The notes under the pieces: model-generated
Database searches by the model: none
What the model saw: only the letters and a program-made list of their open reading frames with translations
What the model was told of the DNA's origin: nothing
From: Escherichia phage Turkey5
DNA length: 64,000 nucleotides
Sequence record: PQ471516.1
Strand: one strand, 5' to 3'
Shown: in pieces, positions 17,557 through 18,218 of the stretch
Numbering within the stretch: position 1 is the stretch's first letter
Layout: the number at the start of each line of letters is the position of its first letter
Position numbers and translations under genes: made by a program

Positions 17557-17563
17557 GATTAAA

Positions 17564-17590
17564 GGGTTGACTACGGTCAACCCTTTTTTT
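17564..17590 (+). terminator. intrinsic terminator (GGGTTGAC-tacg-GTCAACCC plus T7)
   Basis: Perfect 8 bp stem, tetraloop, TTTTTTT; after sigma factor gene. Confidence 0.7.
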
Positions 17591-18218
17591 ATGGGACAAA
17601 TTCGTAAATGGTGATACAATGATCTATGCACAACCACAATGACAGTACTTGTACTGATAATCTTCCCTAATTCACTTGAAAACGTAAAGGATAGATGAGC
17701 TTTTCATTGTAGCGAACAGCAAAAGAAACCCGTTAGATGTGGGCATAGTTTGAACCCCTCACGGCAATGCGGCTGTATAAAGAACCACGTTAGGATGGCT
17801 GGTGGTTCCTCGATAGACATATAAGGATAACACCTTACGAATTATCTAAGGGAGAGTTATCAGATTTTGTACAATATAGTTGCGTCCAAAATTTGAGTAC
17901 TCACATTAAGTATTTGATTGCATAGATACTTAATGAAGATACACTATGTTTAAAAGTGTAGACCGTCATATGAAACTGAAGTAGAGAGAACCAGGATGAC
18001 CCGCTTTCGTGCTCTTTAAGAGTAATCTTCAATGCAATAGCTCTGATACCATCAGCGTCAAATTCCCCTCGGTGTGGGGGGGGGAAGAAAAATCACCTCA
18101 ACAAATCCCGTCAATATTAAAAGTCCTTGACAGTTATTATACATTCGCGTAAGATACGTAGTATCAGAAGCGAACAGACATCTCGAAGAGATGGATGATT
18201 AACATTAAGGAACATCTA

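Follow-up and report, generated by a model that had tools for sequence, protein, structure and literature searches.

What is encoded in a gap of about 660 nt that follows a sigma-factor gene in Escherichia phage Turkey5 and appears to lack any credible open reading frame (ORF)? The gap is located in a 64,000-nt stretch of sequence record PQ471516.1, here called the window, in whose numbering all positions are given. The source is a jumbo myovirus of the genus Asteriusvirus, in the 121Q/PBECO4 group, and Escherichia phage vB_EcoM_JNE01 is 98.7% identical to the window across this region. An initial annotation had proposed a small RNA (sRNA) locus, a replication or packaging signal, or a slippage-prone switch. 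The analysis presented here indicates that positions 17593-18114 constitute a self-contained gene for a large structured non-coding RNA (ncRNA) of an undescribed family, which probably acts as a free molecule in trans. Members of this family are scattered over 2-5 places in each jumbo-phage genome, and some enterobacterial prophages and islands have a single one. The proposed sRNA locus is thus an RNA gene indeed, but its product is not small, being a multi-helix, pseudoknotted RNA of about 430-490 nt with its own promoter and several gene copies.

A conserved gap without protein-coding genes

The sigma-factor-like ORF ends at position 17556, and the next credible start is the ATG at 18219, preceded by AAGGAA; the ORF listing gives the downstream gene as 18195-18428. 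Within the gap only ORFs of 32-47 amino acids (aa) are found, none of them conserved, which agrees with its initial description as lacking credible ORFs. Protein coding was rejected because no ORF exceeds 47 aa and most related records carry no annotation at this place. An AUG-led mini-ORF 3' of the G-run described below was rejected as well, as it is lost in the window copy and meets an early stop in locus L014. In JNE01, a minus-strand coding sequence (CDS) of 70 aa (L001:3502-3714) corresponds to a 43-aa ORF in the window. The short hypothetical CDSs placed on the RNA locus in several GenBank records are probably annotation artefacts.

The non-coding core (17666-18200) is 92.4% identical to phage 121Q, compared with 82% for the 1001-nt stretch 17400-18400 that includes the flanks. 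The gap is the most conserved DNA of its neighbourhood, and the RNA gene is under stronger purifying selection than the adjoining protein genes. Alignment of the gap extends to phages of other genera, where a block of 260-460 nt matches at about 68-75% identity, namely in Pectobacterium phage CBB, Cronobacter phage GAP32, Serratia phage BF, Yersinia phage fHe-Yen9-04, Salmonella phage Munch, Xanthomonas phage XbC2 and Erwinia phages. The element is about 70% identical in Mimasvirus and Eneladusvirus phages. These other-genus copies have varying neighbours and no adjoining sigma gene, and they always lie in a gene-free gap of 630-720 nt. Depositors mostly annotated nothing there, apart from one "repeat_region" and a few short hypothetical CDSs. 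In Alcyoneusvirus (Klebsiella phages RaK2, K64-1 and relatives; H162-H166), only about 100 nt of the 3' core region aligns, and these phages may carry a more diverged relative of the RNA.

The invariant motif CGGCRAYGCGGCNNNATAAA (17762-81) matches 2-3 separate places per related genome in IMG/VR, and BLAST likewise returns 2-5 matching places scattered over each jumbo-phage genome. For 121Q, mapping located three full copies: the ortholog of the window copy at about 90.3 kb and two others at about 192.9 kb and 326.8 kb. Within the 64-kb window, no second copy was found by blastn, by motif search allowing 3 mismatches or with a covariance model; the remaining blastn matches of the element are due to a repeated terminator. 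Copy B of 121Q is located on the plus strand, flanked by minus-strand genes (endonuclease VII and baseplate hub), and carries its own TG-extended TATAAT promoter and its own plus-strand terminator. The convergent gene beside it has a separate minus-strand terminator. Promoter, core and terminator of copy B thus delimit a stand-alone unit of about 455 nt. The covariance model of the core also re-finds members that were not used for its training (L059, L078 and L063) at E values of 1e-13 to 1e-23.

Evidence for a folded RNA and its strand

Helices were proposed by eye on aligned paralogs and then tested on a newly made MAFFT alignment, built without reference to any structure. The test set comprised 53 non-redundant members and 106 base pairs, corresponding to 5,156 cells, and was compared with controls in which pairing partners were slid by 1-3 columns and with 500 shuffles. 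Standard pairs occupy 84.6% of the cells, as opposed to 38-43% in the slid and 67% in the shuffled controls. Changes on both sides are seen in 84 of the 106 pairs (37-46 when slid, 65 when shuffled), and the covariation score is 0.42 (0.08-0.09 and 0.15, respectively). None of the 500 shuffles reaches any of the three observed values. By helix, the proportion of paired cells is 94% for P1, 92% for P6, 91% for P9 and 88% for P10. It rises to 99.5% for P5, 99.6% for P11 and P12, and 100% for P3, P4 and PK3. At least ten helices are strong, pseudoknots included. In total, the RNA folds into more than a dozen helices, with a pseudoknot of the loop-strand type at the 5' end and one of the interleaved type in the 3' core.

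The strand can be read from the kinds of pairs that are tolerated. The robust helices contain 268 G-U against 63 A-C combinations, and the ratio is 43:5 in P9, 30:1 in P12, 11:0 in P11 and 141:17 in the C/G hairpin of the 3' module. This excess identifies the plus strand as the folding strand, on which the promoter and the terminators are also found. About 75 columns are invariant in the 53 sequences; they are concentrated in junctions and loops, are mostly unpaired and tie the helices together. The invariant blocks are CGGCAAUGCGGC, AUAAA, GAUAGACAUAU, UAAGGGAG, GACCGU and CCCGC.

Architecture of the RNA

The body of the RNA is placed at 17628-18061 on the plus strand, from the predicted 5' end to the end of the repeat DR1, as judged from conservation, covariation, strand and copy B of 121Q. 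All parts described in this section lie on the same strand. The 5' domain (17636-17710) comprises P1, P1a, P2 and P3, which pair in the alignment. P1 is formed by ACAATGA (17636-42) and TCATTGT (17704-10), and all seven of its pairs change on both sides. Its 3' strand falls within the loop of P3 (GCT 17699-701 / AGC 17711-13; pair types UA, AU and CG), which results in a pseudoknot. Enclosed by P1 are P1a (17643-48 / 17651-56; 86.5% paired) and P2 (17667-77 / 17687-94), whose two segments are paired in 96% and 86% of cells and whose loop, GAAAAYGUA (17678-86), is conserved.

P4 (ACAGC 17716-20 / GCTGT 17772-76) and P5 (CCGT 17730-33 / ACGG 17761-64) both show compensatory changes. The sub-helix P5a (GGG 17741-43 / CCC 17755-57) is deleted in member L029, a natural mutant in which a UUCG tetraloop caps P5 in place of the whole sub-helix. 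The invariant CGGCAATGCGGC (17762-73) lies within the motif CGGCRAYGCGGCNNNATAAA, the search for which found the family. It is followed by the P6 hairpin (GAACCAC 17782-17788 / GTGGTTC 17802-17808) with a loop of 13 nt. All seven pairs of P6 vary on both sides, and paralogs carry alternatives such as GAAGTAC/GTACTTC and CAAGCGT/ACGCTTG. P6 is the long hairpin that had been reported at about 17790-17820; the hairpin is real, but its position was off by about 10 nt. The base before the stem is an A, giving AGAACCAC and not GGAACCAC.

The middle of the RNA contains the near-invariant GATAGACATAT (17812-22), P7 (AAGG 17823-26 / CCTT 17833-36; 85% paired) and the invariant TAAGGGAG (17847-54), both sequence blocks being evident from the alignment columns. 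A pairing of the P7 loop (ATAAC 17827-31) with GTTAT (17856-60) was seen by eye in one subgroup and is not established; on the unfitted alignment this pseudoknot is unsupported, with 36% of cells paired. The same applies to a proposed helix P14, with 31%. Positions 17864-17892 form the peripheral module M, with the stem ATTTTG / CAAAAT, the loop TACAATATAGTTGCGTC and 76% of cells paired. This module of about 30 nt (AUUUUG/CAAAAU, loop UACAAUAUAGAUCCGUC) changes its place within the family. It follows the UAAGGGAG block in some paralogs, is located inside P13 in L029, L031, L039 and L042, and is present at both places in the bacterial copies L062, L064 and L131. Peripheral docking elements of large ribozymes show comparable behaviour.

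P9 (17904-13 / 17926-35) carries the conserved loop TTGATTGCATAG, and all ten of its pairs change on both sides. P10 (TACACT 17940-45 / AGTGTA 17955-60) leads to the 3' core (17961-18031), in which GACCGT (17961-66) and CCCGC (18000-04) are invariant. Here PK3 (GTCAT 17965-69 / ATGAC 17996-18000) interleaves with P12 (GAGAG 17984-88 / CTTTC 18004-08), and both are located within P11 (TGAAG 17977-81 / CTTCA 18027-31), which covaries at five of five pairs. P13 (18012-15 / 18019-22) is also part of the 3' core.

Promoter, termination and the 3' module

The upstream boundary of the RNA gene is the intrinsic terminator of the sigma-factor gene (17561-17586, plus strand), an 11-bp stem followed by TTTTTTTAT. 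The predicted promoter of the RNA gene (17593-17620, plus strand) consists of a -35-like GGGACA (17593-17598), a 16-nt spacer and the extended -10 element TGATACAAT (17612-17620), matching at 9 of 12 positions and carrying the TG. Transcription would start at about 17627-17630, near 17628. Within the stretch extracted, 28 of 54 family representatives carry TGnTAnAAT upstream of P1, and a GGGACA or TGAAAC box lies about 17 nt upstream of the extended -10 element. In 22 of the 54 members, DR1 is directly followed by a T-run that is interpreted as an intrinsic terminator. The window copy has no such terminator before the downstream genes on the same strand. Its RNA would have to be processed from a longer transcript or end in another way.

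After P11, the module continues in a fixed order with a tail of about 28 nt ending in DR1, the optional terminator, the C/G hairpin, a second copy of the tail, and DR2. DR1, CCATCAGCGTCAA (18049-18061), ends the 3' tail of the RNA, and DR2, CAAATCCCGTCAA (18102-18114), ends the second tail as the last conserved block of the unit; both are read on the plus strand. The repeat covers the last 7-13 nt of the tail and reaches about 28 nt in some paralogs. DR1 and DR2 change in concert, as judged from alignment column strings and from reading the aligned paralogs. Joint changes include U/C at one position, CG to UG twice independently, and A or G after GUCA; Serratia copies have changed CGUCA to CGACA in both repeats. 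A partner complementary to the repeats was sought inside the RNA and found at no consistent location, the best column correlations reflecting paralog subgroups. The block of DR2 and G-run was rejected as a general phage promoter motif, since it does not occur elsewhere in the window beyond chance.

The C/G hairpin (18063-18086, plus strand) pairs the C-rich TTCCCCTC (18063-18070) with the G-rich GGGGGGAA (18079-18086). The CCCC and the run of nine Gs mentioned in the initial annotation are both real; the former occupies 18065-18068, and the latter 18076-18084 and not, as had been given, a place within 18061-18080. Both the 3' arm and some of the loop come from the G-run. All 52 members scored have the hairpin (-10 to -20 kcal/mol), and it makes use of G-U pairs with or without a preceding terminator. 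Its 3' arm, GGGGGGAUGAAA, is fixed in sequence; the 5' arm varies yet stays complementary, and on the unfitted alignment the variation is one-sided only (C-G to U-G). Most family members have exactly six Gs. Among orthologs, the run comprises nine in the window and Turkey3, eight in JNE01, seven in fEgEco12, six in 121Q, UE-S1, ECO103 and A4, and four in CMSTMSU. The extra Gs sit in the loop and only enlarge it.

Members in bacteria and the pairing with serine recombinases

Bacterial members were collected by a pattern scan covering one genome per species and metagenomes. In Citrobacter amalonaticus P55, a type II/IV secretion ATPase gene, taken to be a host gene, precedes a large serine recombinase, after which come the RNA, an ORF and a CI-like repressor. 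The layout of this locus recurs identically in two metagenome contigs. Serratia sp. 2723 shows host genes, a large serine recombinase and the RNA. Serratia sp. L9 retains a degraded remnant of the pair, in which the recombinase is truncated and directly adjoins an RNA that lacks its 5' part. The metagenome contig L083 carries a third type of recombinase. In three element types, the RNA gene is thus located directly downstream of a large serine recombinase on the same strand (L062:1845-4162, L064:3257-6015 and, on the minus strand, L083:8350-11014; the remnant is L063:3387-4445, minus strand). Each of the other two recombinase types is 25-26% identical to that of Citrobacter. In two of the elements, a CI-like repressor follows. 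The junction beside the recombinase gene (attL) has no similarity to the hairpin and repeat module of the RNA.

Other bacterial settings were also found. In an Enterobacteriaceae metagenome-assembled genome, host thiM/thiD are followed by the RNA and a CI-like repressor. Two E. coli genomes contain the RNA, and the copy of LR-29-1 is located in an island beside the 4.5S RNA gene ffs. This island of about 10 kb (L131:4791-15341), between ffs and ybaA, contains IS3, an integrase fragment, DUF4326, DUF488 and dual-OB genes and a small serine recombinase, and about 1.4 kb around the RNA is left without annotation.

Possible functions of the RNA

The most likely function of the gene product is that of an abundant trans-acting RNA. 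The host sigma-70 RNA polymerase would transcribe it from the extended -10 promoter. The RNA would then act as a free molecule in trans and not on its neighbours, because these vary and some copies face convergent genes. Several copies of the gene are retained in lytic phages, which makes a stoichiometric mode of action at high abundance probable. The RNA might form an assembly, either alone or with protein, or serve as a decoy whose invariant core captures a conserved host factor, with the swappable peripheral modules bracing the fold. In the terminator-less window copy, the C/G hairpin with its G-run would probably serve as a 3' barrier or processing landmark.

Several points weigh against this picture. 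The start site, 3' end and abundance of the RNA are all predictions, and trans and stoichiometric action are argued from gene context and copy number. Lacking a terminator before the downstream genes, the window copy might be transcribed solely as the leader of a longer RNA. Both the hairpin and the second tail copy are conserved even downstream of terminators, so a simple picture in which the RNA ends at the terminator fails. The single-sequence folding energy, a check that had been proposed initially, is ordinary, with z-scores of -1.5 on the plus and -1.9 on the minus strand; it does not go beyond chance, whereas conservation and covariation do so by far.

Some of these observations would suit a cis-acting leader, such as a giant riboswitch, an attenuator or a processive antiterminator, that would respond to a signal by permitting or stopping transcription of the downstream genes and use the two identical tail copies as alternative pairing partners around a conditional terminator. 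The window copy without terminator is followed by genes on the same strand, and the arrangement in 22 of 54 members, with a terminator between concertedly evolving repeats, resembles an expression platform. That the hairpin behind the terminator keeps RNA-type G-U pairing implies that read-through transcripts matter. However, the downstream genes vary between genera and paralogs and form no single regulated class, and the 121Q copy B and Munch copies face a convergent gene, leaving nothing to regulate. A sequence complementary to the repeats was found at no consistent place in the RNA, and at 430 nt with about 75 invariant positions the element is far larger than known leaders. A leader function is considered unlikely. 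It is placed first among the rivals, ahead of an element for recombination or mobility, an origin or primer RNA and a G-run switch, in that order. That the RNA founds a new functional class of mobile-element RNA is somewhat less probable again; it would be a ribozyme or self-assembling RNA machine in which one paralog-specific active site recognises the identical DR1 and DR2 as substrates, or a cofactor or regulator of large serine recombinases; the conserved gene pair is a hint at the recombinase variant, in which the jumbo-phage copies would be captured and multiplied versions. The same pairing could mean that the module acts at the DNA level, the C/G inverted repeat and the direct repeats being a serine recombinase site or an insertion scar and the RNA a partner or cargo. 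The RNA gene lies directly 3' of divergent large serine recombinases in three element types and a remnant keeps the pairing; the two repeats evolve together, which is a requirement for crossover cores; and the family is scattered across unrelated mobile elements. Yet complementarity of the hairpin arms is maintained by T opposite G, a pairing that is possible in RNA or single strands and not in duplex DNA, and a variable left arm beside a fixed right arm is unlike two protein half-sites. Moreover, integrated elements contain the module intact and not as a split attP, it bears no resemblance to the junction that adjoins the recombinase gene, the jumbo-phage copies examined have no adjoining recombinase gene, and the 45-100 bp between the repeats are too short for excision. 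A DNA-level role is given only a slim chance.

A replication-origin module is rated marginally lower. Here, the structured transcript would persist as an RNA-DNA hybrid at the G-run and, once processed at the repeat, prime DNA synthesis, for which ColE1 RNA II and T4 origin transcripts are models, and the copies would be multiple origins of a 350-kb genome. Their spread over the genome (about 90, 193 and 327 kb in 121Q) would fit, as would the invariant G-cluster on the non-template strand followed by an AT-rich stretch, and the promoter of each copy. On the other hand, cumulative GC skew climbs steadily over 16-20 kb and turns only at about 42-44 kb, in a test that did not extend to initiator boxes or iterons. 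A terminator, where present, halts the transcript before the G-run, which is itself sequestered within an RNA hairpin, and priming needs no elaborate invariant core. The family is also found between prophage integrase and repressor genes and in an E. coli island, an unusual site for an origin. The initial idea of a replication or packaging signal is unsupported: GC skew has no inflection at the locus, and the compensatory and G-U pairing on the plus strand indicates selection at the RNA level and not a protein site in duplex DNA. Least probable of all, and hardly credible, is a phase-variable homopolymer switch in which slippage of the G-run turns something on or off. Its length does differ among close orthologs (4, 6, 6, 6, 6, 7, 8, 9, 9), with 4-9 Gs among assembled isolates, and the initial proposal of a switch is at most half supported. 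However, the tract is a hairpin arm outside any ORF or promoter spacer, and the next -35 element starts 43 nt downstream. In every member scored, no fewer than 5-6 Gs are engaged by the C-rich arm, the surplus lies in the loop, and most of the family has exactly G6. The tract is either unstable or difficult to sequence, with no sign of acting as a switch, and some of the length differences could be homopolymer sequencing errors.

Neighbouring features of the window

The sequence just beyond the RNA unit contains a promoter-like site (18127-18155, plus strand; TTGACA-17-TAAGAT, 10 of 12 positions) for the downstream small gene, whose product is a small protein with a signal-peptide-like start. 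The site is conserved in close relatives only, and its TTGACA, reported initially near 18128, is confirmed at 18127-18132. Two perfect sigma-70 consensus promoters (12 of 12 positions; TTGACA, a spacer of 17 or 16 nt, and TATAAT) at 18432-18460 and 18983-19010 precede consecutive small genes. This suggests that the region just downstream is a densely promoted early region.

The hairpin that terminates the sigma-factor gene (AAAGGGTTGAC..GTCAACCCTTT) is one of a family of near-identical terminators, each about 24-28 nt long, that are reused after many genes of this region. Further copies are located at 24271-24298, 26273-26298, 27834-27857, 28110-28137, 29721-29748, 34389-34416, 35668-35695, 37331-37358 and 37775-37801.

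At the other end of the window, a full-length match to the group I intron model RF00028 occupies 1685-1998, amid a transfer RNA (tRNA) gene cluster at 219-4443. Rfam also reports a weak tRNA at 479-557 (33 bits against a threshold of 29), directly 3' of tRNA-Ser (385-474). It is not called by ARAGORN and may be a degenerate or unusual tRNA.

Comparison with known systems

The Rfam scan proposed as a check in the initial annotation finds no family that matches either the window copy or the ten paralog loci. Rfam 15 gives no match in the gap at gathering thresholds. On 17400-18400 with E values up to 10, only weak chance matches are obtained, almost all of them on the terminator and the flanking genes, and the ten paralog loci give no match on the element at E values up to 1. 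Models without a match include GOLLD, ROOL, OLE, RNase P RNA, transfer-messenger RNA (tmRNA), 6S, HEARO/omega RNAs and riboswitches. Identity with a tRNA or tmRNA was rejected, as neither ARAGORN nor Rfam detects such a domain in the gap; ARAGORN finds six tRNAs in the window, all below position 4443, and no tmRNA. Full-text literature searches and the papers on these phages that were checked yielded no description of the element.

Few large complex RNA classes are known from bacteria and phages, among them RNase P, self-splicing introns, OLE, GOLLD and ROOL, and each of them brought new biochemistry or architecture. The present RNA exceeds the neighbouring proteins in conservation, persists in several copies in lytic phages of 350 kb, and is also carried by temperate elements. 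Conservation, multi-copy retention and temperate carriage together make an important role at the phage-host interface very likely. Unlike most RNA classes that are known from metagenomes only, this one is directly testable, as it is carried by culturable E. coli phages, among them 121Q, PBECO4 and Sharanji, the last of which grows on K-12. It also calls for a correction of dozens of jumbo-phage records in which the loci appear as empty, as "repeat_region" or as spurious hypothetical proteins. The pairing of recombinase and RNA, if functional, would be new for the widely used serine recombinase family, and a ribozyme-substrate or recombinase-cofactor function, if true, would be a mechanism without described precedent.

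Group I introns resemble the element in size, in their interleaved pseudoknotted core and swappable peripheral modules, and in being common in large phages. In contrast to them, the element has a helix order that does not fit P3-P9, and it is intergenic, with its own promoter and no exons. A group I intron was rejected, as the model that scores 1685-1998 at 95 bits finds nothing in 17400-18400 even at E values up to 10. ColE1 RNA II is a long structured transcript with a G-rich segment that matters at its 3' end, and the gene for the CI RNA of phage P4 is flanked by identical short sequences, seqA and seqC, that act at the RNA level. Both are likened here in kind and not on grounds of sequence or structural similarity; their contexts differ, and no complementary element was found for the repeats of the present RNA.

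Among jumbo phages, an experimental parallel comes from the Pseudomonas phage PA5oct. RNA-seq identified ORF-free long non-coding RNAs (lncRNAs) of 236-619 nt, and two of the four, with lengths of 236 and 451 nt, account for as much as about 5% of phage reads (PMC7318152). PA5oct belongs to a related jumbo-phage clade and shows that such phages make abundant long ncRNAs. Its ncRNA002, the one of the four loci that was checked, differs in lacking the family motifs and does not match the core covariance model, and was rejected as a homolog.

ROOL and GOLLD are large "ornate" RNAs of phages and prophages (PMC12286853). Like the present family, they are large, structured and pseudoknotted ncRNAs without a fixed protein partner gene. 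They share with it many invariant junction nucleotides and variable peripheral elements. The element matches neither covariance model, is smaller at about 430-490 nt, and resides in enterobacterial jumbo phages with several paralogs per genome. Frequent adjacency to tRNA genes, a trait of ROOL and GOLLD, is not seen here; the nearest tRNA ends at 4443, 13 kb from the element, and the annotation tables of the related phage loci, which were not scanned for tRNAs, list no tRNA gene. Homo-oligomeric RNA-only assembly, as in the cages of ROOL and GOLLD, would be a further trait of the kind. What places it with them in kind, and not in homology, is a large covariation-supported multi-helix fold that occurs in phages, prophages and an island. 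The RNA resembles ROOL and GOLLD in lifestyle and is rated as a new family within their loosely defined "ornate" kind, with no detectable homology to either. A new mechanism behind the paired 3' boxes or the linkage to recombinases, if there is one, would make it categorically new.

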